From assembly GCA_041288095.1 (NCBI GenBank), contig JBGGMJ010000005.1:1-39659 (forward strand): 39,659 nucleotides of DNA, written 5' to 3'. Source of the stretch: Myxococcota bacterium (lineage in GTDB: Bacteria; Myxococcota; XYA12-FULL-58-9; JALHOP01). Positions 16,177 to 37,095 of this stretch are shown in pieces (the first letter of the stretch is position 1; each line of letters starts with the position of its first letter). The position numbers and the translations under genes were made by a program. A model generated the notes under the pieces. The model did not search any database. It was not told the DNA's origin and was given only the letters and a program-made list of their open reading frames with translations.

Positions 16177-16204
16177 CGGGCCGGATTCCAACGAGGTGGA
16201 TCCG

Positions 16205-17296
16205 ATGGCGCTTCGACGACGCTCATTCACTGCTCTCCTCGCTCTGACGCTCGTTGCCTGTGACGGCGACAAGGGTCTTACCGGTCCCGCGGGTCCCGTT
16301 GGCCCGCCCGGTGACGAAGGGCCGCAGGGGCCTCCTGGTACCTCTAGCGATGGAGGTGCCGCCGTCCGCTTGTACGGCGACGGCCGCGACGGCGCCTTGG
16401 ACGTGCCCGCGGGGACGACGTTCCTGCCGCTGGACAGCACCGGTCAGTACACGACCATCACGATCGCGACGGGGGGAACGCTGCGCGTGGCGAGCGGCAC
16501 CTTGCTGCGAGCCACCGGCGACATCGACAACGACGGCACCATCGAGGTCGACCCAGCGACATTCACGGGGGTCCGGCGCTACGGTTCAACAATGGCCGAC
16601 CTCGCGCCGGCGACGGTGCCTCCCCATCCCGGCGTTGCCCTGAGCGCCGCTGAGTTTGGCTCCGTCGACATGAGCTCGACGTTCGTCGCCTATGGTGGCG
16701 CCGGGGGCAGGGGGATCGGGCGAGCCGCGCGCTGGCTCACCCAGCTGTTTCCGTCGGCCGGAGGCGCCGGCGCTGATTCGTGGCCGTTCGACGCGGTCGC
16801 GACGGAATCGGGCGGTGGGTCGTTCCATCTTCGGAGCGGCGGCGAGATCCGCAACGCGGGAACAATCCGCGCTCGCGGGGTCGACGGCGGGTTCGGCGGC
16901 CTGGGCGGCTGTGGCGTAGGAGGTGGCGGCGGTGGCGCGGTGCTGCTCGCCGCGGCGACGCAGATCGACAACGGCGGCGGCGCCATCGACGTTCGCGGCG
17001 GGAACGGCCAGGCCGCCGACGGCGACCAGTGCGGCGCGGGCGGCGGGGGAGGTGGCGGCTTCGTTCACCTCATCGCCCCCGTGATCGATGCCGGCGACCT
17101 CCAGTTCACCGGAGGCCAAGCAGGCACGGCCGGCGTCTACGGGTCCTTGCGATGGATCGGTGGCGGCGGTGGCGGCGGCTCCGCTGGTAACGGCGGGCGA
17201 GGCACCGGCCGTATCAACGCGACCGTCTCCGCGGCGAGCGGTGGCGGCACGGGCGCTGCGTACCAGATCGTCGCGGCCCCCGAGACGGCGCTCTGA
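16205..17296 (+). CDS. Lipoprotein with short collagen-like (Gly-X-Y) segment and glycine-rich domain
   Basis: ATG at 16205 with a GAGGTGG SD, lipobox LVAC, GLTGPAGPVGPPGDEGPQGPPG, repeated GGGGGG runs alternating with short beta-strands. Confidence 0.8.
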   Translation: MALRRRSFTALLALTLVACDGDKGLTGPAGPVGPPGDEGPQGPPGTSSDGGAAVRLYGDGRDGALDVPAGTTFLPLDSTGQYTTITIATGGTLRVASGTLLRATGDIDNDGTIEVDPATFTGVRRYGSTMADLAPATVPPHPGVALSAAEFGSVDMSSTFVAYGGAGGRGIGRAARWLTQLFPSAGGAGADSWPFDAVATESGGGSFHLRSGGEIRNAGTIRARGVDGGFGGLGGCGVGGGGGGAVLLAAATQIDNGGGAIDVRGGNGQAADGDQCGAGGGGGGGFVHLIAPVIDAGDLQFTGGQAGTAGVYGSLRWIGGGGGGGSAGNGGRGTGRINATVSAASGGGTGAAYQIVAAPETAL

Positions 17297-17297
17297 C

Positions 17298-19181
17298 TCA
17301 CTGGGTCGCGCGCGCCAGGCGAACGTCGATGACGTTACGCGGGTCGCGCTCGGCGAGCGCGATTTCGCTCGCCGCGTAGCCCGGCGCTTCGATGAACACC
17401 GTGGGCTGCGAGGCAGCGACCGTGAAGCGGGTCGTACCCTCGTCGCCCACCTCGAGCGAGCCCGTGACCAGCGACTTGCCGGTCACGTAGCGCAGCATGC
17501 CGCCGGCGACGAAGCTGCCGCTCGTGTCGGTGATGCGTGCGGTCCAGGTTCGTGACTGCTCGCCTTCGATCTCCACGTCGACGACGCTCCTCGCGGGGAC
17601 GTCGACCTCGAGCTCGTGCACCTTGAGATTGCCGTGCACCTTCGCGCCGACGATGGCGATGCGATAGCGGCCGTCCGCGAGGTCGGCGATCTCGAAGGTC
17701 GCGTCGTCGAAACACTTGGGGACGTGAATCGCGCCATCGCCGATGCGCGTCGCGCCGACGCTGTCGCAATCGCGGACACTCATGGCGAACGCATTCTTGC
17801 TCTTCGCGTCGATGAATCGGCCGCGCAACGTCGAGCCCGCGAGCACGAAGTTGGCCTCGACCTCGGCCGGCTCTTCCATGGTCACGGTGCCGAGCAACCG
17901 CTCCTCGCTGTCGCGCCGTAGCCGCAAACGGTAGCCGGCGTGCGCGGGAAGGTTGTCGACGCGATAGCGGCCATCCGCATCGGTGGTGGTCTCGGCGGGG
18001 AAGGTTTGATGGTCGCGCTTCGCCCAACCCATCGTGTTGTTGATGAGGACGTGAGCGCCGACGACCGGCGCGCCGTTAGCTTCGCTGATGCGTCCGACGA
18101 GCCTCCCCGTCTCCATGGCGAGAAAGAAGTCCTTGGTGAGCTCGGCGACGTGCGTTCTAGCGGTCACCCACCGGAGCGGCTCGGCGCTACGGTTGTCGGG
18201 ATAGCTTTCGAGCTCGACGGGCGGAGTGCCGGTGACCACGCGCACCATCGGGTGCTCGCCGAGAGGAATGAAGATCTCGTAGACGCCGCGCTCGTCGGTC
18301 GCCGTGGTGGCGTCGCCGCTCTTCACCATCACGCCCGTGACCGGCGCCCGTTCGGCTCCCCGATAGACGTGGCCGGTGACCTTGAGGATGCCGCTCAGCG
18401 AGACGCGCACGTGCTCGGTCTCGCCTTCGGCGACGCGCAGGTTGGGCAAGATGGCCGTGCCGTAGCGGGGATGCGTCGCGGTCAGCGTGAAGGCCGTGTC
18501 CTCGGGCGCGCTCTTCAGGATGAACGCGCCTTTGGCGTCGCTCTTCGTCGTGACCTCGCCGATGGCGATGGTCGCGCCCTCGACGGGATCGTCGCGCCAA
18601 TCGACGACGACGCCGGTGAGTCTCGCGCCCGAAGACAAGGGAAACACGACGTAGGGGTCGTCCGTTGGAGCGGACAGGACGACCGACTGGCGCGACGGAG
18701 CGTACCCGCTCGCGCGTACCGTGAGCTCCCAGGCGCCGGCCGCGAGACCTTCGACGACGAACTGACCATTGGCCTCGCTCACCTGCCGCGACAGACCCTG
18801 CGAGGCGCGGGACGCCGGGGTGAGCATAATCTCGAACGCTTGGACCGGGCGCCCCGATGCGGCGTCGAACACCTCGCCGGCGATCCTGAAGCGGACCGCG
18901 CCTCGGCCCGCGTCCCAATAGCCGCCGGTGGCGGCATCGACGCCTCCCGCGGACGCGCCGGCACCAGCTTCGCGCAGCACGACGCCAGTGATCTCTGCCT
19001 TGGCAGCGTCTCCGCTTCCGTCACCCGCGCCCAATCCACCCGCCCCGAGCAGGCCACCCGCAAGCGCGCCGCCGACCTCGCGTTGGCTGGTTGCGATGTC
19101 TTGGACGACCTTGCCGCCGAGGAGCGCAAGGACGACGAGCGCGATGGCCAAGGACCCCAACAAGGTCCGATTCGATTTCAT
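17298..19181 (-). CDS. Membrane-anchored protein with several carboxypeptidase-regulatory-like (transthyretin-like) domains
   Basis: N-terminal TM/signal segment. Repeated G.V.D...P..GA and T(T)D..G.[FY]...L..G motifs. Confidence 0.82.
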   Translation of the reverse strand: MKSNRTLLGSLAIALVVLALLGGKVVQDIATSQREVGGALAGGLLGAGGLGAGDGSGDAAKAEITGVVLREAGAGASAGGVDAATGGYWDAGRGAVRFRIAGEVFDAASGRPVQAFEIMLTPASRASQGLSRQVSEANGQFVVEGLAAGAWELTVRASGYAPSRQSVVLSAPTDDPYVVFPLSSGARLTGVVVDWRDDPVEGATIAIGEVTTKSDAKGAFILKSAPEDTAFTLTATHPRYGTAILPNLRVAEGETEHVRVSLSGILKVTGHVYRGAERAPVTGVMVKSGDATTATDERGVYEIFIPLGEHPMVRVVTGTPPVELESYPDNRSAEPLRWVTARTHVAELTKDFFLAMETGRLVGRISEANGAPVVGAHVLINNTMGWAKRDHQTFPAETTTDADGRYRVDNLPAHAGYRLRLRRDSEERLLGTVTMEEPAEVEANFVLAGSTLRGRFIDAKSKNAFAMSVRDCDSVGATRIGDGAIHVPKCFDDATFEIADLADGRYRIAIVGAKVHGNLKVHELEVDVPARSVVDVEIEGEQSRTWTARITDTSGSFVAGGMLRYVTGKSLVTGSLEVGDEGTTRFTVAASQPTVFIEAPGYAASEIALAERDPRNVIDVRLARATQ

Positions 19182-19248
19182 GATCGCGCTTACGTATCAA
19201 ACGCCCGAGTTATTGCGTACTGCGTGCCGAAAGGCGTAAGCAGCGCCC

Positions 19249-21321
<2,073 letters not shown>

Positions 21322-21360
21322 GGCGACCGAGCTCGGCGCTGTGATACAACGAACAGGGCC

Positions 21361-22653
21361 ATGAAACGCCCGTTCGCGCCCGGCCCCTGGCTGCTCATCG
21401 TCGTCGGCGCGGCGCTCGGGTCGTGCGCGATCTCGGGAATCTTCGAGAGCACTGGCGCGCCGTGCCGCGACGATGCGAACTGTCCCGCGGAGCAATCATG
21501 CTGCCGCGGTCACTGTGCTCGGACTTGCGAGAGCGGCGACGCGGTCGTTGCCTCGGTCACGCTCTCCACCGACTTCGTACCCGGCTACGAGTTCGATGAG
21601 GTCCGCGTTGAGCTCGACGACGACGTGCGCGCCGTCGACGCCAACGTCACCGCCGCGTTTTTCTTCGCGGCGCCGGTCGGACAGTTTTTCGAGGTTGCGC
21701 CAGACCGCGAGCACCGGGTCGTCGTCGCTCTGCGCAGCGCCGGTTCGACCGTGGCGGAGCGGACCGTCGCGTTCACTCCGTCGGCTGACGTCGTGGTGCC
21801 CGTGGTGCTGAGCCGCGACTGCACGGAGGTCGTTTGCGGTGCGGCCGACCAGTGTCTCGGCGCCCGCTGTGAGAGTGAGCAGTGCTTCGGCCTCGAGCCG
21901 TCCGCTTGCCTCGCGCCCCTCTGCGCGAGCGACGTGGATTGCCCGGCCTTGGTTGCTTGCACGCGCGGTGTCTGCACCAGCGGCGTGTGTCTGCAGCAGC
22001 GTGACGACTCGTCTTGCGGAGCCGACGAGCGCTGCCTGCCAGGCGTGGGTTGCATGGCGCGCGAGGTCGAGTGTGACGATGCAGCCGATTGCGAGGACAA
22101 CTACTCGTGCACACGCGAGGGCTGCGATCGCGGGCGCTGCGTCGTGACCGCCGAGCACGCGAGCTGCGAAGACGATACGATCTGCGCGCCGGGCGCGATC
22201 GGTGTCGACCCGGTGACCGGTTGCGCGCCGCGACCCACCTTTGCCTGTGCGACCAGCGGCCAGACGATTCCCCTCGAGTGGCGCTGCGACGGTTTCGCCA
22301 ATTGTTTCGACCACAGCGACGAGCAGGGTTGCGGCTATGCGCTCTTCACCTGCGCCAACGAGACGCAGGCCATTCGAGCGGACTGGGCCTGCGATGCCTT
22401 CGTCAACTGTCCCGATCAAAGTGACGAGACCGACTGCGGCTACGAAGCTTTCGTTTGCGCGAACGGTTTCAACGTGACGCGCCAAGAATGGGTCTGCGAC
22501 GGCTCGACGACGTGCCCCGACTTCAGCGACGAGGCGGACTGCGGCTACGCGCTGTTCACGTGCGCCAACGGGGTGCGAGCCATTCGAGCCGAGTGGCGCT
22601 GCGACGCCTTCGTCAATTGTGAAGACGGCAGTGACGAGATCGGTTGTCCCTAG
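21361..22653 (+). CDS. Cys-rich exported protein with four C-terminal LDL-receptor class A-like repeats
   Basis: Signal/lipobox LGSC, myxobacterial-type Cys-rich repeats, and four copies of F.C.....W.CD....C.D.SDE..C. Confidence 0.85.
   Translation: MKRPFAPGPWLLIVVGAALGSCAISGIFESTGAPCRDDANCPAEQSCCRGHCARTCESGDAVVASVTLSTDFVPGYEFDEVRVELDDDVRAVDANVTAAFFFAAPVGQFFEVAPDREHRVVVALRSAGSTVAERTVAFTPSADVVVPVVLSRDCTEVVCGAADQCLGARCESEQCFGLEPSACLAPLCASDVDCPALVACTRGVCTSGVCLQQRDDSSCGADERCLPGVGCMAREVECDDAADCEDNYSCTREGCDRGRCVVTAEHASCEDDTICAPGAIGVDPVTGCAPRPTFACATSGQTIPLEWRCDGFANCFDHSDEQGCGYALFTCANETQAIRADWACDAFVNCPDQSDETDCGYEAFVCANGFNVTRQEWVCDGSTTCPDFSDEADCGYALFTCANGVRAIRAEWRCDAFVNCEDGSDEIGCP
22240..22650 (+). 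repeat. Four intragenic LDLa-like repeats (~35 codons each)
   Basis: Repeats 2 and 4 are also similar at DNA level (gcgct.ttcac.tgcgccaacg...gccattcgagc...gccttcgtcaa.tgt). Confidence 0.85.
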
Positions 22654-24092
22654 CCGAGCCCCGGCAGCGGACCCGGGTCGACCTCTTCGTCGACGTCGGT
22701 GTAGTCGCCGAAGGTCGTCACCGGCGAGTTGAAGGCGTTGAGCATGCTCACCGCGAGCTGATGGAAGCCCGGCCGATCGGCGAAGCCCCACGACAGGGTC
22801 GGGTTCGCGGTGTCGGGAGCGAGTGACAGGTGTCTGCCGAGCGCCACGTTGCCGAAGTTGCCGCCGATGGTGAGCGTTTGATTGCCGGCGGCGTGGCCAC
22901 CGCCGTTGCCGAACTCGCCAAGCCAGACGAGCATGGTGTTGTCGAGCGCGGTGCGGCCGTTGCCTTCGTCGATATCCTGCAGGCCTTTCATGAGCCGCGT
23001 GAAGATCTTCGCCTTCCACGCCCCGATAGCCGTGAAGGTCTTCGCCGTGTCGCCGCGCTCGCCCTGGTCGCTGTAGAGATGCCAGGCGCCATGGTAGTTG
23101 GCGCCGCCGCGCTCGAACGTCGTGTTCAGGGTCGGCTCGTTGAGGAACGCGAGCTTGTCGGCGCTGGGCTCGGAAAAGCTCAGGGTTCCAACGTCCGCTT
23201 GGCCACAGGCGATGGCGTGGACCAAGAGGCTCGCGTGTGCCTCGGCGTAACGTTCGAAGTCATAGGTCGAAACGCCACTGATGATTGGCGCCGATCCGCA
23301 GCTCGCCGGCAGTGACGCGGGGTCGACGGGCTCGTGCGCGAGAGTCGTCTCGATGGTTCGGATCTTGTCGGCGTGCACGTCCAAGCGCTGCCGGTCCTCG
23401 AGAGCAACACGGCTGCGCAAGCGATTGAATTGCTCGAGCACTCCATCGAGCACGCTCTTGCGGCGGACGGCGAGCACGTCGACTGTGGGCGCGTCAGGGG
23501 GCGGTGGCGCGGTACCGAAGAGCGCATCGAATACTTTCTGTGGGCGGTTCTGCTGGTTGATGGGGTCGCCGGCTCCGGCCCAGAAGAGTTGCGACGTCGA
23601 GACGTCCGTCCCTGGGTCGTCCGGCACTCTCAAGTCCAAGCGGCGCGGCGCGCCACCGTCGGCGATGAGCTGGCCGATGACGTGATCGACCGAGGGGCCC
23701 GCGCCGGTGATCTGCCAGTTGGCATCACCCCAGTGGGTCTCGCGGCGGCAGGTGAGCGCCGTCCACGCATTGCCCCAGTGGCCGCCGGTGACTTTGTGAT
23801 CGACGCCGCCGAGGACCAACGTCTTGCTCTGCAGACCGGCAGCGGCGATGGGCGCGAGTACCTGACCGTAGCTGCCGTCGGCCTTCGGCCACCACTCGTC
23901 CATGACGAGACCGTGGTGGTGGTACATGACGATGAGCCGCTTGGGGCCGTTGATGAGTGGTGCCCACGCCGTAGCTCTGCGTGGTGCCGCGAGCGTCGCG
24001 AGGAAGGGGAGGGCGACGGCGACGCCACCGGCCCCGACGAGAAAGCTTCGGCGCGAGGTGCGCCGCACCAGTAGATCGAGCCCTTTGGTCAT
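22650..24092 (-). CDS. DUF1552-family protein with Tat signal (copy 2)
   Basis: SRRSFLVG..VALPFL, PKRLIVMY, SVDHVIG, RKSVLD, DRQRLDVH, LDNTMLVW.GEFG. ATG at 24092 overlaps the upstream stop. Confidence 0.87.
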   Translation of the reverse strand: MTKGLDLLVRRTSRRSFLVGAGGVAVALPFLATLAAPRRATAWAPLINGPKRLIVMYHHHGLVMDEWWPKADGSYGQVLAPIAAAGLQSKTLVLGGVDHKVTGGHWGNAWTALTCRRETHWGDANWQITGAGPSVDHVIGQLIADGGAPRRLDLRVPDDPGTDVSTSQLFWAGAGDPINQQNRPQKVFDALFGTAPPPPDAPTVDVLAVRRKSVLDGVLEQFNRLRSRVALEDRQRLDVHADKIRTIETTLAHEPVDPASLPASCGSAPIISGVSTYDFERYAEAHASLLVHAIACGQADVGTLSFSEPSADKLAFLNEPTLNTTFERGGANYHGAWHLYSDQGERGDTAKTFTAIGAWKAKIFTRLMKGLQDIDEGNGRTALDNTMLVWLGEFGNGGGHAAGNQTLTIGGNFGNVALGRHLSLAPDTANPTLSWGFADRPGFHQLAVSMLNAFNSPVTTFGDYTDVDEEVDPGPLPGLG

Positions 24093-25720
24093 GGCTGTGG
24101 CTCCGTCGCGTAGATCATCAAATCGGACGCCGCGAGCTCGATGATGGCCTCGCGGATCGAGGTCGTCGCGGTGGTGGCGATGCTCGCGATGGCGCATTTC
24201 TCCGCCGACGTCGACGAGCGACCCACGGACCACTCCAGCCAACGGCGGGAGTAACAGCGCGCAACGTCCGTGTCGGTCGCGAGTTGATCGACGAGGTCGG
24301 TGGCGTTGGCGAAGCTGCGTCCGTCGGAGAGCTCGCCGGCGGTCTCGATGGGTTGGCCGTCGGCGTAACTCGTGGCGTAGGCACCGGTCGCGTCGTACAT
24401 CTCGAACGCGAAGCCCAATGGGTCGATTTGCGTATGGCAGGAGGCACAGATCGCGTTTTCCTTGTGTGCCGAGAAGATCTCTTTCTTCGACTTCGGCTCC
24501 TCACCGGGCGCGGGGGTCGGCAGCGACGTGTCGACATCGTCCGGGGCGACGAGGCTCGTGCACATGAGCTTCGAGAGGATGGCGACGCCGCGACGCACCG
24601 GAGAGGTGCCTGTCGCGCTGGCCGTCGACGCGAGATAAGCGCCGCGCGTCAAAATCCCCCGGCGCTCTTCACCGAGTGTCACCTCGCGCCAATCATCCGG
24701 GCCCGTCGAGCCGGAGGCGACGCCATAGAAGGCCGACAAACGCGAATTGACCAACGCGGCTCGGCTGGTGAGCAGGGCGCCGACACCGCCTTCTTCGTCC
24801 CAGATGGTGCGATCGATGAACGCCTCGAGCTCGGTGCGCAGGTCCTCCGCGAGCTCGGTGGTGAAGTCCGGGAAGACCTCGGCGCTCTTCTGCAGTGAGG
24901 TTGGCTCGAGCACGGCGAGCCACTCGTGGTGGAAGCGCCGCAGCGTCTCCTTCGCTCGCGGGTCCTGCAACATGCGCTCGGCTTGAGCCCGCAGTTGCTC
25001 GCTGGTGCGCAACGCATCGGCGTCGGCGGCCAATCGCAGCTGCTCGTCAGGCAGCGATCCCCAGAGAAAATACGACAGACGTCTGGCCACCGAGTGTCCG
25101 GTAAAGCGGAGTCGGCCGTCTTCATCGACGGCGTCGGCGGTGATGTAGACGAAGTCCGGGGACTGGATGCCGAGCTCGATGATCGCGCGTACGCCGGCGC
25201 GGACATCATCGACGGCTGTCACCGCGTCGTAGGCCGCCACGAAGGTCGCGACCTCTTCGGTGGTCACCGGCCGCTGGTAGGCGAGAGCGGCATAGCGGCG
25301 CACGAAGCCTTCGATGCAGCCCGCGGTGCCGGCCGCGCATCCGAGGAGGCCCACCATGTCCGCGGTGAGCTGTTCGGAGGCGCGCTCGGCGGCGTCCATG
25401 AGCTGGTTCGCGGTCAGCAGCGAAATCGTGTTTTGACGGGCGTTGTTCGAGAAGTAGTCGCCGACGCTGGGGTCCGGAAAAGGCGACGGGCCGGCGTCGA
25501 AGGTGGTGACGCCAAGCTGGGCCGCGAGGTCGCGCAGGCTGTTTCCTAGCTCGGCCTGCGAGAGCCGCCGCAAGGGGGCGGGATCGCTCAATGCCACCGG
25601 GTTCGCCTGGCAGGCGTCGATCTGGGGGATCTCGTCGACCAGCCGGTCCGAAATCGTGCCACCGTCGCAAGCGGCCGTGAGCGCGAGCAAAAGCACCGCA
25701 TGTAGGCGGGAGGATGCCAT
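24089..25720 (-). CDS. DUF1592/DUF1588-family lipoprotein with CxxCH heme motif (copy 2)
   Basis: AGGAG SD, lipobox LTAAC, LRRLS, QSPDFVY, RLSYFLWGSLPD, TSPVRRG, CASCH..DPLGFAFE. Confidence 0.88.
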   Translation of the reverse strand: MASSRLHAVLLLALTAACDGGTISDRLVDEIPQIDACQANPVALSDPAPLRRLSQAELGNSLRDLAAQLGVTTFDAGPSPFPDPSVGDYFSNNARQNTISLLTANQLMDAAERASEQLTADMVGLLGCAAGTAGCIEGFVRRYAALAYQRPVTTEEVATFVAAYDAVTAVDDVRAGVRAIIELGIQSPDFVYITADAVDEDGRLRFTGHSVARRLSYFLWGSLPDEQLRLAADADALRTSEQLRAQAERMLQDPRAKETLRRFHHEWLAVLEPTSLQKSAEVFPDFTTELAEDLRTELEAFIDRTIWDEEGGVGALLTSRAALVNSRLSAFYGVASGSTGPDDWREVTLGEERRGILTRGAYLASTASATGTSPVRRGVAILSKLMCTSLVAPDDVDTSLPTPAPGEEPKSKKEIFSAHKENAICASCHTQIDPLGFAFEMYDATGAYATSYADGQPIETAGELSDGRSFANATDLVDQLATDTDVARCYSRRWLEWSVGRSSTSAEKCAIASIATTATTSIREAIIELAASDLMIYATEPQP

Positions 25721-25728
25721 CTCCTGAC

Positions 25729-25756
25729 AAGGACCCGACCCGGCGGAAACGGCTCA
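25729..25756 (-). promoter_or_regulatory. ECF-type promoter TGAGCC-N16-GTCCTT (DUF1592-DUF1552 operon)
   Basis: TGAGCCGTTT-ccgccgggtcgg-GTCCTT. Same boxes and spacing as the motif upstream of the sigma gene. Confidence 0.75.
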
Positions 25757-25763
25757 AAAAAAA

Positions 25764-26555
25764 TCAGCGGCTGCAGCCGATGCGCGCGTCATCGAGACCG
25801 AGCTCGTCGTACCAGATATCGAGGGGGGGCCTCGTGGCCGTGTCGCCGAACAGAGCGGCGCCAATGCTGAAGCGGCCCACTGGTTGCGGCGCCATGCTCG
25901 TATCGCCGCTGTAGGCCAAATCAGTCACCTCGGCGCCGTCCACCCAGAACTGCATCTCGCCAGTCACGCCCGAAAGGACGCGCCACTCGAGACACGTCCA
26001 GCGATCGAGCGGCAACGACGTCGCCGAGCGAACGTACGCTGCGTTGGCCGAGAGGGTGAGATTGCCGTCGTCAATCCACAGCATCGGGCCTTCGTTGGGC
26101 GCGTCGGCCTGCAGCAGACCCAACATGCGAAAGGTTCTTCCAGGCAAAGGGGTTTGCACGTAAGCGAAGACGCGCGCGTAGAAGGTGTCCTGCGGCACCA
26201 CGGCGGTCTGCGTGATCTCGCCCATGCGCACCCCTTGCCGCTCGGGGTCCGGCTCGGCATCCGTGCGTACGTGCAGCGCGCGGGTGCCGCGGAAGAAGCG
26301 CTCGGTATCTAGCGTCACGCTCGCCGCGTAGTTCACGAAGTACCAGGGCGGCGATTGCACCTGCGGCTGCTCGAAGCCGTCGCAAAGGGCGAGGCCGGCG
26401 AACGTGCACAGCGAGGGGTTGGGGGTCTCGGCGTCGGCGGCGAGCTCGTCGACGTCGGTTTCCAGCTCGTCGTCATCGGCGAGGGTGAGGACCGGCTCGG
26501 TTCGTGGTGAGCACGCCGCAACGGCGAACAGGCAGGGTAGGAGGAGCCGGCGCAT
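25764..26555 (-). CDS. Lipoprotein with Cip1 / polysaccharide-lyase-like beta-sandwich domain
   Basis: ATG at 26555 coupled to the upstream TGA, lipobox VAAC, motifs LCDGFE, FYARVFAY, RWTCLEW, FWVDG, WYDE...RIGC. Confidence 0.7.
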   Translation of the reverse strand: MRRLLLPCLFAVAACSPRTEPVLTLADDDELETDVDELAADAETPNPSLCTFAGLALCDGFEQPQVQSPPWYFVNYAASVTLDTERFFRGTRALHVRTDAEPDPERQGVRMGEITQTAVVPQDTFYARVFAYVQTPLPGRTFRMLGLLQADAPNEGPMLWIDDGNLTLSANAAYVRSATSLPLDRWTCLEWRVLSGVTGEMQFWVDGAEVTDLAYSGDTSMAPQPVGRFSIGAALFGDTATRPPLDIWYDELGLDDARIGCSR

Positions 26556-27529
26556 CAGTGCTCCGCTCGCAGACCGAACGCCAATGAGAGACCGGCCCAG
26601 GCGCCCGACAGACCGATATCCGGCCCCCGATCGACGCCCGCGCGGGTGCTCGTGAACGCGTAGCCGCCGTCGACGATCAGCTCCGTGGCGAGCCGGGCCG
26701 CCGGCAAGAAGAAGACGCTGACACTGGCCATCGGACCACCCCACGGTGCCCAGACGACGTCGCCCACCGCCTCTTGGGCAGCGGCGTTGCCGCGATAACG
26801 GACGACACCGCCGCGTCCACCGGCACCGGCGCGCAGGCCCCAACGGGCCCATTGTCGCTGGTACGCAAGACCAACGTCGGCGCCGATGACATCGACGCCG
26901 ATGCTGCCCAGCGTGACGTCGCGACCGCCGTGCTCGAAGGCGATGTCGATGGGCAACGCCAGACGCCGCGCGATGCTGGGTACGACGCGCACTCCTCCGC
27001 CGACGAGGATGCCCGCGTTCTGGAAGGGTCCGTGGGCGCAAGCAAAGGCGGCGAGCTGGGTCCAGCGCTCGTCGAGCGTGCGAACGGCGGCAAGTGCATC
27101 CTTGCGTGCCGCCAGAGGAGCACGCTCGCCGACCGGCTCGGCGACGGGGGTCGGATTCGTCGTCAGCTCGGCCCAGCTCGCCGACACCAGCTCGACGATG
27201 GCGGTCGCGAGCAGGCGACTGGCACCGGCTTTGCCCAACGCGAAGATGTCGACGGTGCGCGCCAGCGATTTTCCCGTGACCGGGTCGTCCACGTCGATGC
27301 GGACGAACGACGATCCGGTCACCGGCGCGACGCGGACCCAGGTCGTACCGGCGCGGGATGCGGTCTCGGAGGAGCTGTGAAGATTGAGCTCGACGAGCTT
27401 GCGTACCGCGGCCTTGTCCGCGATAGCGACACCATCGTCGATCTCGATCACGAGAGGGACGGCCGCGGCCGCGGGCACCGCCAAGAGGAGACTCGCGGTG
27501 ACCAGGGGCCACCGCCAAGCAAATCTCAC
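26555..27529 (-). CDS. Exported hypothetical protein, C-terminal half beta-barrel-like
   Basis: GTG at 27529 overlaps the FecR stop. Sec signal (LLLAVPAAAA). Gly/aromatic amphipathic strands in the C-terminal half. Confidence 0.65.
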   Translation of the reverse strand: MRFAWRWPLVTASLLLAVPAAAAVPLVIEIDDGVAIADKAAVRKLVELNLHSSSETASRAGTTWVRVAPVTGSSFVRIDVDDPVTGKSLARTVDIFALGKAGASRLLATAIVELVSASWAELTTNPTPVAEPVGERAPLAARKDALAAVRTLDERWTQLAAFACAHGPFQNAGILVGGGVRVVPSIARRLALPIDIAFEHGGRDVTLGSIGVDVIGADVGLAYQRQWARWGLRAGAGGRGGVVRYRGNAAAQEAVGDVVWAPWGGPMASVSVFFLPAARLATELIVDGGYAFTSTRAGVDRGPDIGLSGAWAGLSLAFGLRAEH

Positions 27530-28656
27530 TCTAGCCTCCCGAACCGGCGCACCGACGCAGTATGCGGTCCGTTGGGATAGCGCGCGAGATAATCTTCGGC
27601 CCGTGCCAGCGCATTGGCTCCGTCGCCGGCCCGCGACCAAGCCTCGACCTCGCGGGCCAGTGCGTCACCGGCAAGCGGCCCATGCGCGTCGAGTGCTCGC
27701 GCCCGCGCGAATGCGTTGGCCGCTTCGCGCGGGCGGCCAAGCTCATCGAGCAGGACGCGGCCCAACGTGAAGGCGGCGAGCTGCGAGCGCGGATCGGTCG
27801 TGTGCTCGCGGACGACGCGCTCGAGATACGGGACCGCCTCGGCCGGATGGTGGCTCCAGCGCGCGACGTCGGCGGCGAGCATCAGCTCTTCCGGGATATC
27901 GCGCACGACCCGCGCGCCGCCGGCTCGGAGCTCGCCATAAGCGGCGTCGTAGTTGCCGCGCGCCGCGCTGGCGCGCCAGGCGCTCGGGGCCGCGTCGCCC
28001 TTCTTGCGATTCCCGTCGTGGGTGGCGAGCGGGTCGGTCGGAGCGGGCAGCGCAACCTCCGGCAGCCGCACGGGCTCGTTCACGGGCGCGGCCGCTGCTG
28101 CCGGCTGCTCGGCGGCGGGGCTCGGCGCGCCGCGGCCACGCTCGAAGGCGGCACTCTCACCTTGCGAGATCAGCCGCGCGACGCCCTTGGTGGTCACACG
28201 CACCTGGCCGCGCTCGACGCGCACATTCACGTTGCTCTCGCTCACGGCGACGACGAAGCGCGTGCCGATGACCTCGACGCGGACGTCGCCAGCCACCACC
28301 TGAAACTTGCGCTTGGGGTCGTGCACGACGTCGAAACGGCTGGCACCGCGCACCGCGACGACCTCGACGGCGTTGGCGCTCGCGCTGGTGACGTCGATGA
28401 GGCTGTCGTTGCCGAGCGGCGCGACCGTCGACCCGTCGGCGAGCGTCACGGGTACTGGAGCACGCCAGCGGTAAACGAGATTTCCGGCGGTGCCGGCGAT
28501 CAACATTGCGGTGAGCGCGGCGAAGACCGTTCGCGTCCGCTTTTGCCGACGAAAGCGCCGCGTGCCTTGGCGGATGGTGCGCTCGATCTGGCCGGCGGTC
28601 GGCGCCTCCGGGGTGAGCGAGCGAAGCTCGGCCAGCATGTCGTTCAGGTCACTCAT
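27526..28656 (-). CDS. FecR-domain anti-sigma factor with C-terminal TPR domain
   Basis: One TM helix, FecR motifs TLADGS, G...FDV.HDP.RKF.V, VEVIGTRF.V, VERGQVRV. TPR-like AAFTLGRVLLDELG. Confidence 0.9.
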   Translation of the reverse strand: MSDLNDMLAELRSLTPEAPTAGQIERTIRQGTRRFRRQKRTRTVFAALTAMLIAGTAGNLVYRWRAPVPVTLADGSTVAPLGNDSLIDVTSASANAVEVVAVRGASRFDVVHDPKRKFQVVAGDVRVEVIGTRFVVAVSESNVNVRVERGQVRVTTKGVARLISQGESAAFERGRGAPSPAAEQPAAAAAPVNEPVRLPEVALPAPTDPLATHDGNRKKGDAAPSAWRASAARGNYDAAYGELRAGGARVVRDIPEELMLAADVARWSHHPAEAVPYLERVVREHTTDPRSQLAAFTLGRVLLDELGRPREAANAFARARALDAHGPLAGDALAREVEAWSRAGDGANALARAEDYLARYPNGPHTASVRRFGRLE

Positions 28657-29188
28657 CGCGAAGCGCCTCCGCGATGACGTCGTGAGCGGCGCCGATGCGG
28701 CGCTTGGCGGTCGCGAGCGAGCAACCGCAAGCGGTCGCGACCATCTCGAGCGACATGCCCTCGATGTGTCGCAGGGTCCACGCGAGGCGCTCGTTCACCG
28801 GCAGCCGATCGAGAACGCGGTAGATCGATCGCAGCATGCTGTGCTGCTCCGGGCTCGCTTCCGGAGCGATGGCATCGGTGTAGCCCACGTCTTCGGTGCC
28901 GAAGATCGAGAAGAGCCGCCGGCGCTGCAGGCGTCGCTTGGCCTGGCGCACCGTGGCGATGGCGAACCATTGGCGAACGGCGGCGGGATGGGCGAGATCG
29001 CGCAGATCGCGCCGCGCGCTGATGAAGACATCCTGCAAGAGGTCTTCGGCGTCTTGCATGCTCTTCAGGATGCGCAGGGCGATCGAGTAGACGAGCCGAG
29101 CATTGGCGCGGAAGGCGGTCTCGAGCGGATCCGCAGCGGCGCCGGCCTGGTCGGGCGGTAAGCTGTAGAGATGGGCTCGATGGCTCAA
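28649..29188 (-). CDS. ECF RNA polymerase sigma factor
   Basis: Region 2 DAEDLLQDVF..W, region 4 LRHIEGMSLEMVA...SLATAKRRI. TTG start with a GAGG SD. Overlaps the fecR-like gene. Confidence 0.93.
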   Translation of the reverse strand: MSHRAHLYSLPPDQAGAAADPLETAFRANARLVYSIALRILKSMQDAEDLLQDVFISARRDLRDLAHPAAVRQWFAIATVRQAKRRLQRRRLFSIFGTEDVGYTDAIAPEASPEQHSMLRSIYRVLDRLPVNERLAWTLRHIEGMSLEMVATACGCSLATAKRRIGAAHDVIAEALRDE

Positions 29189-29211
29189 GACTGCAAACCC
29201 TCACCATGAAT

Positions 29212-29239
29212 AAGGACAGAATCGCGGCAAAACGGCTCA
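29212..29239 (-). promoter_or_regulatory. ECF-type promoter TGAGCC-N16-GTCCTT (putative autoregulatory promoter of the sigma operon)
   Basis: TGAGCCGTTT-tgccgcgattct-GTCCTT, 23 nt upstream of the sigma start. Confidence 0.75.
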
Positions 29240-29286
29240 CTATGCCAAGCGGTCAGGCAAGTCGCGTGATCTTAGCTCACTTTTGC

Positions 29287-29314
29287 TGAGCCGATCAGAG
29301 CGCCTGGTGTCCTT
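29287..29314 (+). promoter_or_regulatory. ECF-type promoter TGAGCC-N16-GTCCTT (divergent propeller lipoprotein)
   Basis: TGAGCC-gatcagagcgcctggt-GTCCTT, 14 nt upstream of GTG 29329. Confidence 0.72.
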
Positions 29315-29328
29315 TGCGGAAGGTGAGG

Positions 29329-30573
29329 GTGATAGCGGCATCATGGCTGGCGTTGGTGGGTGTGACGCTCTGCGCCTGCGGCAACGAGGTGTCGATGCCG
29401 AGCGTCGAGGGTGCGGGCGGGGAAGAAAGCGATCCGCCCGTCGGTGACGTCGACACCACGGCGCCGGGTGACGACGACGGGCCAGGTCCCGCGGGCGGCG
29501 ACGTCGCGCAAGGCGACGATGACCCACCAGGAGACGCCGATCTTCCACCGGCCAAGGTGCCGGTATTCATCGCGCAGGGACACGCGGGGCGGCTTCTCAT
29601 GTCGTGCGACGATGGCCGCTCGTGGCGCTTCGACGTGAGCGACGACGACGCGATTGTCTGCTTCAATCCCACCGACTGCGATCACAGCGCCATGTCCGCG
29701 GCTGGGCTCACCTATGCGAACGGGCACTTCTTCGCGAGCTTCGGCCACGGCTCGTCCGCCGGAACGTTACGGCATTCCGTCGACGGCAAGACCTGGACGC
29801 CCCTGCAGACCGGCAGCTCGCAGGGAGGCGTGTACTTCAACGGCGAGCTCCTGCTGTGGATGGAAGGGCACTTTGGCCTCTCGAACGATCTCGGCGTAAC
29901 CGTCGACTCGAACCTCGAGAATGTTCCTGGTCACTTCTATCAGTCGCGCACCATCGCGGCGCAGGGCGACGTCATCATCGTTTCGGGCGACGGCGTGGGG
30001 GGCCTCGTGAGTCGCGATGCGGGACGGACGTGGCAGGCCGCGACGCTCGTGGATGTGCGCTGGGGACGTAACGTCTTCATGCAGACGGCGCCAGACGGCA
30101 GTCTGGTGACGCTGAGCGCCGTGCACGACGTCCAGATCGGAGAGCAGACCTACAAGACGCTGGCGTTCGCCGCGCGCTCGACCGATGGCGGGCTCACCTG
30201 GGTGGGCTCGCAACGCTTGGACTACGTCACGGCCTACGTCGAATGGGCAGGCATGTTCAGCGACGGTGGCCTGCTCTTCGCCTTTTTCGACAACGCCATG
30301 TGGACGAGCGAAGACGGCATTACGTGGGGCGGGGTGACGGTGCAGACGTCGCTGCCGGCGGGGCGCATCACCGATGGCGCCATCGCACGTGGGCCGAGCG
30401 GCACCTACGTCACCGTCACCGACGTATGGAACAACTACTACGACAAGCAGCGCGCCTATCGCAGCGACGACGGCCTTCACTGGACGCAGCTCGACGCGGA
30501 GAGCTTCACCGGCGGACACCCGGTGCGTCACATGACCACCGGGTGGGTCGACGCCGCGGCCTGCGCCGAGTAG
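29329..30573 (+). CDS. BNR/Asp-box (sialidase-like beta-propeller) lipoprotein
   Basis: Lipobox LCAC, acidic Pro linker, Asp-boxes SCDDGRSW, SVDGKTW, SRDAGRTW, STDGGLTW, SEDGITW, SDDGLHW. Start chosen at GTG 29329 (ORF track gives 29314). Confidence 0.85.
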   Translation: MIAASWLALVGVTLCACGNEVSMPSVEGAGGEESDPPVGDVDTTAPGDDDGPGPAGGDVAQGDDDPPGDADLPPAKVPVFIAQGHAGRLLMSCDDGRSWRFDVSDDDAIVCFNPTDCDHSAMSAAGLTYANGHFFASFGHGSSAGTLRHSVDGKTWTPLQTGSSQGGVYFNGELLLWMEGHFGLSNDLGVTVDSNLENVPGHFYQSRTIAAQGDVIIVSGDGVGGLVSRDAGRTWQAATLVDVRWGRNVFMQTAPDGSLVTLSAVHDVQIGEQTYKTLAFAARSTDGGLTWVGSQRLDYVTAYVEWAGMFSDGGLLFAFFDNAMWTSEDGITWGGVTVQTSLPAGRITDGAIARGPSGTYVTVTDVWNNYYDKQRAYRSDDGLHWTQLDAESFTGGHPVRHMTTGWVDAAACAE

Positions 30574-30595
30574 CGGCTGGCGGGCACCGATGGGC

Positions 30596-30639
30596 GCGGT
30601 GCGACGAGCTGCACACTGTGGTGTAGCTCGCCGCACCGC
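30596..30639. repeat. 18-bp imperfect inverted repeat downstream of the propeller gene
   Basis: GCGGTGCG-A-CGAGCTGCAC / GTGTAGCTCG-C-CGCACCGC. No U-tract. Confidence 0.6.
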
Positions 30640-30892
30640 TCGGAGGACCGCGGCGCGTGTGCCCCAACGCGCCAGCGGGCGAAGTTCGCGCGCCGCATCC
30701 ACGAACGGCGCAATCTTCGCTGCGACTGGTTAGATCAAGATCTGGTGAAAACAGCTCCCCGCTCGGCTCATTCGTTGTGGTGATATCGGCCGATCGCGGC
30801 TGGGGTTGCCCCCTCATGTGCGACTTTTTGGCACCTGGGATCGTCTGAGACCCGATAAGGAAAGATGCCCTCGATTCAGGGCGGAGTGCGTC

Positions 30893-31333
30893 ATGTTGCT
30901 CGCAAACCTCGTCTTGACCATGGCGTTGGCGGCCGACGAGAGCTCGCGTTTTCACCTGCTGGAAAGCCAGCTTACGGTGGCGACTCAGGTTGGGACGGAG
31001 CCTGCGAGCAAGAAGTGTCCGAGCCTCTATCCCAAGGTGGCGCCCCAGCCTCCCGAACCGCTGTCGACGCCACTCCCCGACGCGGCGCTAAAAAAATCGC
31101 TGGCTGAAGCTTTCGGCGGACGCACGCGCGCCTCGGCCTGCGTCTACGGCGTTCAGGGCGTTCGCCGCCAAGACCCACGCTACGGCATGCGCCAGCTCAC
31201 GCTCGAGGTCGCGCCGCCGCTGGCTCCGCAAGGGCGCCTGCGCCTGCTGCTGCGGACGGTCGTTAGTCGCTTCGAAACCATGCACGACGTTGGCCACAAC
31301 AACGCCGAGGTCTACGCCGGCGTCAGCTACTGA
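30893..31333 (+). CDS. Small exported hypothetical protein
   Basis: ATG at 30893 with a GGAG SD, signal-like MLLANLVLTMALAA, CCCGATAA box at 30851-30858. Confidence 0.5.
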   Translation: MLLANLVLTMALAADESSRFHLLESQLTVATQVGTEPASKKCPSLYPKVAPQPPEPLSTPLPDAALKKSLAEAFGGRTRASACVYGVQGVRRQDPRYGMRQLTLEVAPPLAPQGRLRLLLRTVVSRFETMHDVGHNNAEVYAGVSY

Positions 31334-31384
31334 CCTCCGATCTCGACGCCTGCGAAAAATCGACATGTTGCCGTGAAAAAGTGC

Positions 31385-31413
31385 TCGACGGGGTCACGTG
31401 CTTTTGCTAGAAG
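31385..31413 (+). promoter_or_regulatory. sigma70-type promoter of the S10 operon
   Basis: TCGACG-N17-TAGAAG with an extended-10 TG and discriminator CCGCGCCC. Same -10 as the rpsL promoter. Confidence 0.55.
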
Positions 31414-31547
31414 CCGCGCCCCTGAGTTCAAAAGGCACCCGTCCTCGTGGCGGTGATGCGGTTTGACAACGCGGAAAGCGCCGTCCGGGCGCGTGATCGA
31501 GGCTCATTACGGCTTCGAGAGCGCACCCGATGCAAACGAGAGTTGAG

Positions 31548-31880
<333 letters not shown>

Positions 31881-31894
31881 GGCGGAGCACGTCA

Positions 31895-32527
31895 ATGAAA
31901 GTCGATGTCTTCAACGTAGAGAACAGCAAAGTCGGCAGCGTCGATCTGCCCGATGACGTGTTCGGCGCCGAGGTCAACGAGACCCTCCTCTGGGAGATGG
32001 TCAAGGCCCAGCGCGCTTCGCGTCGCCGTGGCACGGCCAAGACCAAGCGTCGTGGCGAAGTCAGTGGCGGCGGCATCAAGCCCTTCAAGCAGAAGGGCAC
32101 CGGCCGCGCTCGTCAAGGCTCGAGCCGCGCTCCGAACCACGTCGGTGGTGGCTCGGTGTTCGGTCCCGTTCCGCGCGACCACAGCTACCGCCTCCCGCGC
32201 TCGGCCCGTAAGGTCGCGCTCGCCAGCGCTCTGTCGCTGCGCGCCAAGGGCGGGCTGATGATCGTCGACAAGATGGAGCTCAAAGCTCCGAAGACCCAGA
32301 GCGTCGTCGAGTTCATGGGCAAGGTCGGCACGACCAGCGCTCTGATCATCGACATCGAGAACGACAATCTCAAGCTGTCGACGCGTAACCTGAAGAAGGC
32401 GAAGTACCTGTTCGCTTCAGCGGTCAACGTCTACGACATTTTGGACCACGACAAGCTGGTCATCACCAAGGGCGCTCTCGAGCACGTCATCGCTCGCGCC
32501 AAGAGTGAAGAAGCGAAGGCGGCCTAA
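31895..32527 (+). CDS. rplD: 50S ribosomal protein L4
   Basis: [23 protein letters not shown]. Confidence 0.99.
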
Positions 32528-32528
32528 G

Positions 32529-32816
32529 ATGCAGACTCAAGAAATTCTCGTCCGTCCGATCATCACCGAGCGCGCGACCACCGCGCAGGAGCGTCTTGGT
32601 CAGGTCACGTTCGAGGTCAAGAAGGCCGCGAACAAGAATCAGATCAAGAGCGCCGTCGAGACCATCTACGGCGTAACCGTTTCCGCGGTGCGCACGATGA
32701 CCATGCCCGGCAAGCTGAAGCGCCGCGGTCAGAGCATCGGCAAGCGTCCTAACTGGAAGAAAGCCATCGTTCAGCTCAAAGAAGGCGACAAGATCGACTT
32801 CTTTGCGGCGGAGTAA
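32529..32816 (+). CDS. rplW: 50S ribosomal protein L23
   Basis: RPIITE, ANKNQIKSAVE, WKKAIVQL. Confidence 0.98.
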   Translation: MQTQEILVRPIITERATTAQERLGQVTFEVKKAANKNQIKSAVETIYGVTVSAVRTMTMPGKLKRRGQSIGKRPNWKKAIVQLKEGDKIDFFAAE

Positions 32817-32819
32817 GCC

Positions 32820-33671
32820 ATGGGCGTAAAGAGTTTTAGACCGACGACGCCGACCAAGCGTCATCAGACCCGCGCCGATTTCGCGGAGCTCACGACCAAG
32901 GGTCGCGCGCGTCCCGAGAAGTCGCTCACCGCGCCTCTCAAAGAGAAGGCCGGCCGCAGCAACCAGGGCCGTATCTCCGTTCGCTTCAAGGGCGGCGGTC
33001 ACAAGCGCAAGTACCGCATCATCGACTTCCGTCGTAGCAAGGTCGACGTCGTCGCCAAGGTCGTTCGCATCGAATACGATCCGAACCGCTCGGCACGCAT
33101 CGCGCTGTTGCACTACAAGGATGGCGAGAAGGCGTACATCATCGCGCCCGTAGGCCTCGCCGCCGGCGACACGGTGGTCAGCTCGTCGACGGCGGACATC
33201 AAGCCCGGCAACTCATTGCCGCTCGTGAACATCCCCTTCGGCACCACGGTGCACGCCATCGAGATGAAGCCCGGCAAGGGCGCTCAGCTCGCGCGTAGCG
33301 CCGGCGTCTCGGCGACCTTGATGGCCCGTGACGGCGGTTACTGCCTCTTGCGCTTGCCCTCGGGCGAGATTCGTCAGGTGCCGGAAACCTGCCGCGCCAC
33401 CATCGGTCAGGTCGGCAACACCGACCACGAGAACGTCGTTCTCGGCAAAGCCGGTAAGTCACGCTGGCTCGGTCGCATGCCGCACAACCGCGGCGTCACC
33501 ATGAACCCCGTCGACCATCCGTTGGGCGGCGGCGAAGGCAAGAGCTCCGGCGGCCGTCACCCGGTCACGCCGTGGGGTAAGCCGACGCGTGGTTACAAGA
33601 CCCGCAAGAACAAGTCGACGAACCGCTTCATCGTTCAGCGTCGTCCGCCTAGCAACATGAGCAAGGGATAA
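32820..33671 (+). CDS. rplB: 50S ribosomal protein L2
   Basis: [28 protein letters not shown]. Confidence 0.99.
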
Positions 33672-33677
33672 GCCACC

Positions 33678-33959
33678 ATGCCACGTTCACTGAAAAAAGG
33701 TCCCTTCGTGGACAAGCACCTCGTCAAAAAAGTCGAGGAGCTCAACAAGAGCGGCGCCAAGCGTGCCATCAAGACCTGGTCGCGTCGCTCGACCATCTTG
33801 CCGGACATGATCGGCCACACGTTCGCGGTCCACAACGGCCGCAAGCACATCCCTGTGTTCGTCACTGAGAACATGGTCGACCACAAGCTCGGTGAGTTTG
33901 CCCCGACCCGCACCTTCAATGCTCACCCGGGCATCAAGAAGAAGGAAGTAGCGCGCTAA
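33678..33959 (+). CDS. rpsS: 30S ribosomal protein S19
   Basis: [26 protein letters not shown]. Confidence 0.99.
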
Positions 33960-34348
33960 TGGCTACCAGAGAAAAACAAAAGGCCGTCAAGCGGGCCGAA
34001 GCGCGCAAGGCTCTCGGGCCCGTCGCGTCGCTCAACTATCTGCGCATGTCGCCGCAGAAGGTTCGCCTCGTTGTCGACCTCATCCGCGGCCGCGCCGTGG
34101 AAGAGGCGCTCAACATCCTGACGTTCAGCCCGAAGGCGGCTGCCGGTCCGCTCGGCAAGCTCCTGAAGAGCGCTGTCGCCAACGCCGACCAGAAGGGTGG
34201 CTTCGACCTCGACAAGCTGGTCGTCAAGACCGCGACCGTCGACGAGGGTCCGACCTGGCGACGGTGGCTGCCGCGCGCTCAAGGCCGCGCCACCCGCATC
34301 CGCAAGCGTACGTCGCACGTCACCATCGTTCTGGGCGAGAGGGCTTAA
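33959..34348 (+). CDS. rplV: 50S ribosomal protein L22
   Basis: [28 protein letters not shown]. Confidence 0.99.
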
Positions 34349-34352
34349 TCAC

Positions 34353-35042
34353 ATGGGTCAGAAGACACATCCAGTAGGCTTCCGCCTCGGCGTCATTCGT
34401 ACCTGGGACTCCAAGTGGTACGAGGACAAGAACTACGCAGCGTGGCTGCACGAAGACATCAAGCTCCGCGACTTCGTGAAGAAGAAGCTGAACAGCGCTG
34501 GTGTCTCCAAGGTCGAGATCGAGCGCGCCGCCGCCAAGGTGAAGATCAGCATCTACACCCCGCGTCCCGGTATCGTCATCGGTAAGAAGGGCGTCGGCAT
34601 CGAGCAGCTCAAGAAGGAGCTGCAGGTTCTGTCGAAGTCCGAAGTCTTCGTGAACATCCACGAAGTCCGCAAGGCCGAGATCGACGCGCAGCTCGTCGCC
34701 GAGAATGTCTGCGTTCAGCTCGAGCGCCGCGTTGCCTTCCGTCGCGCCATGAAGAAGGCGGTCCAGACCGCTCTCAAGTTCGGCGCCAAGGGCATTCGCA
34801 TCGCCGCCGCCGGCCGCTTGGGCGGTGGTGAAATGGCCCGTCACGAGCAGTACCGCGAAGGCCGCGTGCCGTTGCACACGCTGCGCGCCGACATCGACTT
34901 CGGCTTCGCCGAGGCGAAGACCACGTACGGCAAGATCGGCGTCAAGGTGTGGATCTTCCGCGGAGAGATTCTCCCGGATTCGGGTCCGTTGCCTCCGCGC
35001 GAGAAAGCCCCAGAACAGCCCCGGGAGCGCTTCGACTCCTAA
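34353..35042 (+). CDS. rpsC: 30S ribosomal protein S3
   Basis: [26 protein letters not shown]. Confidence 0.99.
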
Positions 35043-35074
35043 CGGGAGTTGTACGCTAAAGAGGACTAACGATC

Positions 35075-35494: not shown

Positions 35495-35505
35495 GACCAA
35501 GACCA

Positions 35506-35892: not shown

Positions 35893-35894
35893 TC

Positions 35895-36287: not shown

Positions 36288-36329
36288 TTCGATAAGGACG
36301 TCCGCTTTGGCGGATGCTGAGGTTTAGTC

Positions 36330-37033: not shown

Positions 37034-37095
37034 GGCGCCTCCGTTTTTGGAAATCAGCCGGTTTGATTGCGTGACCGGCTGTAACGAGGAAAGTC

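Follow-up and report, generated by a model that had tools for sequence, protein, structure and literature searches.

An ECF sigma locus in a Myxococcota genome with three matching, very probable promoter sites, a FecR-TPR anti-sigma and a putative locus-specific -10 address

We analysed a 39,659-nucleotide (nt) window of DNA from a Myxococcota bacterium, which comprises the whole of contig C5 in a 5.85 Mb genome (66% GC, 212 contigs). Between positions 22650 and 30573 it carries an extracytoplasmic function (ECF) sigma factor, a FecR-type anti-sigma factor with a TPR domain, a predicted outer-membrane barrel protein, several lipoproteins and a bipartite motif that recurs upstream of three transcription units. 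We consider it likely that this locus is a complete local trans-envelope signalling unit with a three-unit regulon, whose paralogues have been re-addressed through the -10 element. The features are listed below by coordinates and strand.

22650..24092, minus: DUF1552 (HXXSHH) protein, 480 aa; Tat-type leader SRRSFL; alkaline-phosphatase/sulfatase-superfamily fold (modelled)
24089..25720, minus: DUF1587/1595/1592/1588/1585 lipoprotein, 543 aa; PSD2-5 and PSCyt3 (Pfam); one CxxCH heme motif
25729..25756, minus: predicted ECF promoter of DUF1592-DUF1552; ATG at motif position 37
25763..25781, minus: weak hairpin and T-run between the operon and the DUF1592 promoter; hairpin absent from L001 (see below); chance level in the scan
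25764..26555, minus: lipoprotein, Cip1-like/LamG-like beta-sandwich, 263 aa, the operon's fourth gene; Cip1-like match below cut-off (Pfam)
26555..27529, minus: signal peptide, alpha/beta N-domain and 8-stranded OmpA/OmpW-like barrel, 324 aa; proposed transducer
27526..28656, minus: FecR-TPR anti-sigma, 376 aa; FecR E 4.5e-11, TPR matches below cut-off (Pfam)
28649..29188, minus: ECF sigma factor, ECF267-like, 179 aa; Sigma70_r2 and r4_2 (Pfam); TTG start behind a GAGGG ribosome site; D61 (RpoE Ala60), R85 (RpoE Asn84), recognition helix SLATAKRR
29212..29239, minus: predicted autoregulatory ECF promoter of the sigma operon; -35 TGAGCC, -10 core GTCC
29287..29314, plus: predicted divergent ECF promoter of the propeller lipoprotein; GTG at motif position 37
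29323..30573, plus: Asp-box beta-propeller lipoprotein, DUF6242_C-like, 416 aa from GTG 29323

The locus and its three probable promoter sites

The overlapping stop and start codons that a sequence-only reading of this DNA had described from the sigma gene through the Cip1-like gene are present: sigma and FecR share 8 nt, FecR and barrel GTGA, and barrel and Cip1-like gene TGATG, while DUF1592 and DUF1552 overlap through ATGA. The anti-sigma, which adjoins the ECF sigma, is a single-pass FecR-type protein composed, in order, of a short cytoplasmic N-terminus, one hydrophobic segment, a FecR beta domain, a Pro/Ala linker and the TPR domain. The entire locus, together with all three sites, is retained in a genome of the same genus (G002, locus L001), whose sigma is 87% identical. 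NCBIfam returned no family for the barrel, Cip1-like, DUF1592, DUF1552 or propeller protein. Within 22000-31500, terminator-like sites numbered 7 against 4.4 expected, which is chance level, and a sigma-70 promoter scan gave 0 sites.

The motif TGAGCC-N16-GTCCTT was recovered three times, at exactly the positions and on the strands originally reported; 0.01 occurrences were expected in the window, and 0 of 100 shuffles reached three. Across the 212 contigs these are the only matches at spacing 16, and the other spacings from 12 to 20 yielded 0-2 each. Because hexamer frequencies predict about 0.8 matches genome-wide, the signal lies in the clustering within 3.6 kb. Comparison with L001 revealed that the boxes are identical at 36/36 positions and the spacers at 36/48 over the three sites. 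Thus, both sequence checks suggested beforehand, a genome scan and a comparison of orthologous loci, came out in favour of the motif: its matches are restricted to this locus and its boxes are kept. A looser scan of 372 strong -35 sites, demanding CT at the -10 and a start codon at 35-39, likewise returned only these three, one of which passes through an out-of-frame GTG. These three repeated signals are very probably promoters of this locus's sigma, and the earlier picture of an autoregulated, self-contained three-promoter regulon is supported by the locus-unique sites and their conservation in L001. A regulon extending in trans was also considered and rejected; relaxed scans added 7 GTCCT-type sites, none with a filter-passing start codon at 35-39.

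The orientation and coordinates of the sites relative to their genes stood as first described, whereas the -10 register and the propeller start needed correction. In the family register the -10 is (T/G)GTCCT, which shifts it upstream by one base relative to the box named before. The TTG at 29314 was ruled out as the propeller start, as it overlaps the promoter box; GTG 29323 is as far from the motif as the ATG of DUF1592 is, and L001 retains it. Since both of these start codons occupy motif position 37, the DUF1592 and propeller mRNAs are probably leaderless, with +1 placed at motif position 36-37 by RpoE-based -10 numbering. Across the family, the first ATG or GTG opening a long frame falls at positions 34-39 in 30/86 real sites vs 24/524 controls.

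A leaderless start of the sigma gene itself was not retained: the GTG that stands at motif position 36 shares the reading frame of the gene in L001 and is off by one base here, and TTG 29188 was therefore taken as the start. The frame is thrown by one extra base relative to L001 at 29197-29204 (minus strand), where two contigs possibly from the source sample match the window. Between the divergent promoters, at 29255-29285, GTGAGCTAAGATC is unchanged in L001; GTGAGCTAAGATC and the propeller -35 form an imperfect inverted repeat (GCTCA-N7-TGAGC). In several relatives a pair of -35 boxes stands back to back, with a spacing similar to that of the 29255-29285 arrangement.

A shared -35 element and a locus-specific -10

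Relatives of the sigma were drawn from collections of genomes and metagenomes. The metagenome scan gave 80 loci, the majority of them unrelated ECFs, which were used as the negative control. Related genomes among the relatives are not independent, and the family counts therefore overstate formal significance. TGAGCC was found within 250 nt upstream of 47/76 sigmas scoring at least 150 bits (shuffle expectation 5.8), of 8/14 at 120-150 bits and of 2/10 at 90-120 bits; for the unrelated ECFs the count was 4/69 (expectation 4.7). Behind the -35 stands G-T/A-T-T; then come a spacer without features and, at positions 23-28, a second peak. The region-4 residues equivalent to RpoE Arg171 and Ser172 hardly vary (K in 70/71 and R in 71/71 sigmas), which is what a fixed -35 requires. 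The motif is thus not peculiar to this locus: its -35 is family-shared and its -10 alone is local. The exact 12-base motif was discarded as the family signal, since its matches in 41 relatives, 0-8 per genome, are scattered except in G000 and G002.

The -10 varies from locus to locus. Position 27 is C in 61/66 sites and positions 24-26 vary, the forms seen being CACT, CAGT, CGTC, CATC, GCCC, GCTC, GTAC, GAAC and GTCC. Divergent TGAGCC sites matched the neighbouring sigma's own -10 at 3.68 of 5 positions and the -10 of other sigmas at 2.04 (25 pairs; 0/10000 permutations), and sites upstream of nearby DUF1592 genes matched the local -10 at 3.57 positions and others at 1.76 (14 pairs). Furthermore, 105 strong -35 sites lie within about 10 kb, and the local -10 is found at 28 of them (6.1 expected). 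A lipoprotein open reading frame lies downstream of 24/38 strong -35 sites with the local -10 and of 6/229 with another -10; the corresponding counts for weak -35 sites are 1/16 and 9/346. The lipoprotein calls used our own lipobox pattern, and this test is independent of the choice of motif. The window genome has three paralogues and some relatives have 13-20; in the second module here, on contig C126, GACACT stands upstream of the sigma and GGCACC upstream of a divergent DUF1592.

Covariation across 66 sigmas was strongest for two pairs: motif position 25 and profile column 66, and motif position 26 and profile column 42. Alignment to the solved E. coli RpoE places these columns at Asn84 and Ala60, residues that the available text of PMC7776599 gives as determinants of -12/-13 and -11. 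Asp or Glu at column 42 accompanies C in 6/6 cases, the window sigma included, Arg, Lys or His accompanies T in 13/15 and Gly accompanies A in 14/17; at column 66, Ser or Thr accompanies G in 11/13. The window sigma, with D61, reads C, yet it belongs to a clade mostly reading A. These correspondences suggest that the sigma would read TGAGCC via its region-4 helix and the -10 core GTCC via region 2.

We therefore regard it as probable that the -10 insulates the paralogues from one another. A more comprehensive proposal, in which we place slightly less than even confidence, is that a fixed TGAGCC -35 is combined with a 2-3-base -10 address set by two sigma residues, that the barrel grips the TPR domain of the FecR-type anti-sigma, and that such TonB-free modules, forming a large myxobacterial family with up to 20 copies per genome, each switch their own leaderless lipoprotein genes, in many cases a DUF1592-DUF1552 pair of heme lipoprotein and phosphatase-fold protein. 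If it is true, every copy's cognate targets would be predictable from sequence. Among 35 targets or fourth genes scanned against Pfam, 13 had matches and 21 had none, the remaining one being a mis-called DUF1552; the matches comprised GH114, GH44, LamG (two), RCC1 (four), Big_5 (two), Kazal (two) and a beta-lactamase fold. Given this variety, glycan handling is plausible for some copies and unproven for that of the window.

Several observations weigh against these conclusions. The -10 register was fitted, with a one-base shift in 14/66 sites, and the window's own sites belong among those 14. Weak -35 sites, too, match the local -10 in mild excess (23/526 vs 11.0 expected), and the fourth gene varies widely among loci. 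Independent covarying pairs on well-supported branches number only 3-6 (sign test, p at least 0.125), and other columns also score high in covariation (column 25, z 7.3). TGAGCC is missing within 280 nt of 36 of the 107 family sigmas that have enough upstream DNA, and the third paralogue in this genome (C126:18076) has no recognisable site. Many of these 36 show variants, TGAACC/TGACC or TGAGCT, and 15 carry Ser for Ala at column 141; judged by eye, the fourth base of the best site is A or C in 12/15 with Ser vs 4/19 with Ala. The barrel gene is upstream of the sigma or undetected in many loci, and in genome G083 DUF1592 adjoins 0/7 sigmas.

The anti-sigma, the barrel and a proposed signal route

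FecR-TPR lies directly after the sigma in 80/81 family loci, and a narrow profile detected the barrel gene in 47/81. The barrel protein was modelled as an alpha/beta N-domain followed by eight strands, with a predicted local distance difference test (pLDDT) of 78.7; the model superposes on OmpW 2f1t (Z 17.8, root-mean-square deviation 2.4, 163 aligned) and matches OmpA in Foldseek (E 4e-7). Modelling FecR-TPR with the 26555-27529 product, as had been recommended, predicted a contact: the periplasmic part of the anti-sigma and the barrel N-domain gave a complex score of 0.84, and the best of three controls 0.13. The mark set for this score is reached by 116/157 solved pairs and 2/215 mismatched pairs. 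Between runs at least 48% of contacts coincide, and partner pLDDT is at least 65. In the modelled interface the TPR groove sits on barrel helix 101-121, and the closest contacts include R335 beside E113, the former nearly invariant and the latter invariant. The models make it fairly likely that the TPR domain binds the barrel N-domain. Of the earlier suggestion that the TPR domain senses the signal along with barrel and lectin-like partners, the TPR-barrel contact is supported by the model, and the TPR domain looks more like the place where the barrel docks than like the sensor. The fourth-gene lipoprotein (25764..26555) is a candidate ligand-binding partner, and we tentatively suggest that it and the barrel carry a signal from an external ligand.

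A TonB-dependent receptor was looked for as well. The genome has 12 TonB-receptor matches, none of them on C5 or C126; STN gave one match per genome in five genomes, none on a TonB receptor; and 0 of 45 family sigmas in these five genomes have a TonB receptor within 10 kb (nearest 14.5 kb). The receptor-free character first ascribed to the locus is supported for the contig, and no receptor STN was found in the five genomes.

The signal route that we propose would begin with the outer-membrane barrel presenting its periplasmic N-domain, the conserved helix of which is modelled in the TPR groove of the inner-membrane anti-sigma. This contact would be loosened by a change at the cell surface, where the barrel and the co-transcribed beta-sandwich lipoprotein probably meet a ligand, and the anti-sigma would be processed or inactivated, freeing the sigma. 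This release step is proposed by analogy with Fec/Fox systems, above all FoxA-FoxR, in which, according to the accessible part of PMC11637429, the anti-sigma is shielded by the outer-membrane signalling domain as long as no signal has come. Freed sigma would bind TGAGCC through region 4 and GTCC through region 2, as covariation at known determinants indicates, and exactly three units would be transcribed: the four-gene sigma operon, DUF1592 with the Tat-exported DUF1552, and the propeller lipoprotein. Paralogues would keep the -35 and change the -10, each acquiring its own address and its own small lipoprotein set.

Other explanations accept part of this evidence. The promoters may be real and the module may instead gauge envelope assembly, namely the maturation of outer-membrane proteins or lipoproteins, through the barrel's periplasmic domain holding the anti-sigma, with envelope-maintenance lipoproteins as its outputs; the outputs are indeed nearly all lipoproteins, eight-stranded barrels have no energised uptake route, and the TPR domain weakly resembles BamD/YbgF, far below cut-off. 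We nevertheless find this explanation unlikely, as 13-20 paralogues per genome, with differing -10 elements and cargo, better fit many distinct inputs. Somewhat less probable again is that the sites serve another family sigma, or several, so that the -10 match reflects local promoter duplication and the outcome is cross-talk rather than insulation. The boxes stay the same where the spacers vary, both from site to site within the locus and between species, the -10 base tracks the determinant residue of the local sigma, and the other site-bearing paralogue here reads GACACT and has G at column 42, all of which speaks for the locus's own sigma. On the side of cross-talk, the -35 is common to all paralogues and position 27 is mostly C (61/66). 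Genome G043, in addition, has a TGAGCC-N16-GTCCTT site (L013:17547) near a sigma whose own -10 is GACAGT, and a TGTCCT-type sigma on another contig (L167/L270), which makes the L013 site a possible trans target; this mismatch of site and local sigma means that trans action or chance matches do occur.

Control of the sigma might also lie with a Ser/Thr kinase, or with a TonB-dependent transducer whose gene is located elsewhere, leaving the barrel as cargo, an idea that can draw on the 12 TonB-receptor matches and on the phosphorylation proposed for ECF267 in the available text of PMC7826278. It appears improbable: a Hanks-kinase motif occurs in 11/62 family loci and nowhere in the 20 kb around the window sigma (19001-39000), as found with a simple motif that misses divergent kinases; no TonB receptor carries the single STN match of any of the five genomes; in the model the TPR domain is where the barrel N-domain docks; and the anti-sigma ends in TPR, not in the STN-type domain bound by FoxA (PMC11637429, accessible part). 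That the repeat is due to chance or is a functionless remnant is hardly credible. The 12-base pattern does occur 0-8 times per genome in the 41 relatives, unclustered outside G000 and G002, but clustering, orientation, conservation, family-wide enrichment and lipoprotein targets contradict that explanation.

Known systems, outputs and neighbouring genes

The closest described group is ECF267, for which the available text of PMC7826278 reports a FecR-like anti-sigma fused to TPRs at +1, no FecA-like/TonB-dependent receptor, promoters that are 'not conserved' and 1-3 protein kinases in the genetic context; its members are from Sorangium and Chondromyces, its groups are drawn by sigma phylogeny, and phosphorylation is proposed there because of the nearby kinases. 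The window family shares FecR-TPR at +1 and the lack of a TonB receptor, and Sorangium loci (L005, L017) are among its relatives. It differs in its conserved -35, locus-matched -10, outer-membrane barrel and lipoprotein targets, and it is broader than Sorangium and Chondromyces; relatives at 41-48% identity come from Sorangium sp., and the window genome falls outside both genera by kinship. The sigma looks like ECF267 by gene-context features, and because the kinase feature is missing here, we label it 'ECF267-like'.

With FecA-FecR-FecI and FoxA-FoxR-FoxI, as treated in the accessible part of PMC11637429, the locus has in common a periplasmic N-domain of an outer-membrane protein that contacts, here by modelling, a FecR-type C-terminus, and a local regulon that includes the outer-membrane gene. 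Unlike in those systems, an 8-stranded barrel stands in for the TonB-dependent transporter and a TPR-helix contact for the STN-STN one, the sigma is autoregulated via a bipartite motif, and the outputs are lipoproteins, not iron uptake. The local-regulator ECFs of PMC7776599 (available text) resemble the locus in having at most 3 linked promoters, with Ala60/Asn84 setting the -10 and the Arg171/Ser172 helix the -35; the window family, in contrast, expands within genomes with the -35 fixed and the -10 varied. A term search of the accessible supplements of that paper found neither TGAGCC nor any of four myxobacterial genus names, and motifs stored as matrices would escape it. In titles and abstract starts, no paper gave the motif, which subscription papers and bioRxiv supplements outside the search may hold, and PMC7826278 was the only match for this sigma type.

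Receptor-free FecR-TPR (ECF267), small local ECF regulons and the residue-base code (PMC7776599) are thus already known, as far as the accessible parts of these sources go; the family-wide promoter, the locus-specific -10 marking small lipoprotein regulons and the modelled TPR-barrel contact are what the present analysis adds. They supply a promoter for an ECF group listed without one, show how many paralogous sigmas per genome could stay separate despite a common -35, and point to an outer-membrane signal route without a TonB-dependent transporter. They also offer a handle for switching on and studying DUF1592-DUF1552, a very abundant pair of unknown function, and the natural -10 variants could serve directly as a collection of candidate orthogonal switches.

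Of the 62 family sigmas with full flanks, 20 have DUF1592 within 8 kb, and in the six genomes counted this was so for 17/34 vs 3.4 expected. In the window genome, 4/20 DUF1592 genes have TGAGCC upstream and 2 match a local sigma, so this context is recurrent, not general. Hence the view of DUF1592-DUF1552 as an output of this regulon is supported by a promoter site with a matching -10, and the wider claim of a regulatory context for these families holds for some copies and not in general. The available text of PMC5615132 describes PSCyt3/PSD group genes with DUF1552 neighbours, for which a carbohydrate role was suggested from context; the domain set is identical to that found here and the neighbour is conserved, and no regulator is described in that text. 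Here, by contrast, some copies are given a predicted ECF promoter, and the model of DUF1552 has an alkaline-phosphatase/sulfatase-superfamily fold. The model aligns with sulfatase 7stt (Z 16.6, root-mean-square deviation 4.0, 279 aligned), all 50 matches listed are members of the superfamily, and D136, H338 and H400 are conserved. The fold suggests a metal-dependent ester-processing enzyme beside the heme lipoprotein, although having a fold in common does not demonstrate activity. The description of the propeller as glycan-active was not supported: its BNR_2 match (20.6 bits) is below the cut-off of 31.4, its relatives carry DUF6242_C, and among the nearest clusters DUF6242_C stands at 0.89, as a lead only.

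DUF1592-DUF1552 copies range from 4 to 120 in the genomes counted, and G043 has 120 DUF1592 (PSD4) matches in 7.6 Mb. A second DUF1592-DUF1552 pair lies in the window at 10103-13398 (minus strand), without the motif. In G000, three more pairs (C166, C210, C203) adjoin more distant ECF sigmas, two of which have FecR-like neighbours; TGAGCC is absent upstream of these sigmas.

The signalling locus and a gene with LDL-receptor class A (LDL-A) repeats sit between fusA and rpsJ, the usual place of tuf, with rplD directly after rpsJ and the L3 match (rplC) 28 kb off on the opposite strand (19249-32527 and 3337-4080). At 16196-17296 (plus strand) there is a lipoprotein without a Pfam match that has a short collagen-like Gly-X-Y stretch and a Gly-rich C-terminus. 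The LDL-A gene itself (21361-22653, plus strand) encodes a Cys-rich lipoprotein with four repeats of this mostly eukaryotic domain; its stop overlaps that of DUF1552, and at least 6 related genes are present in the genome.

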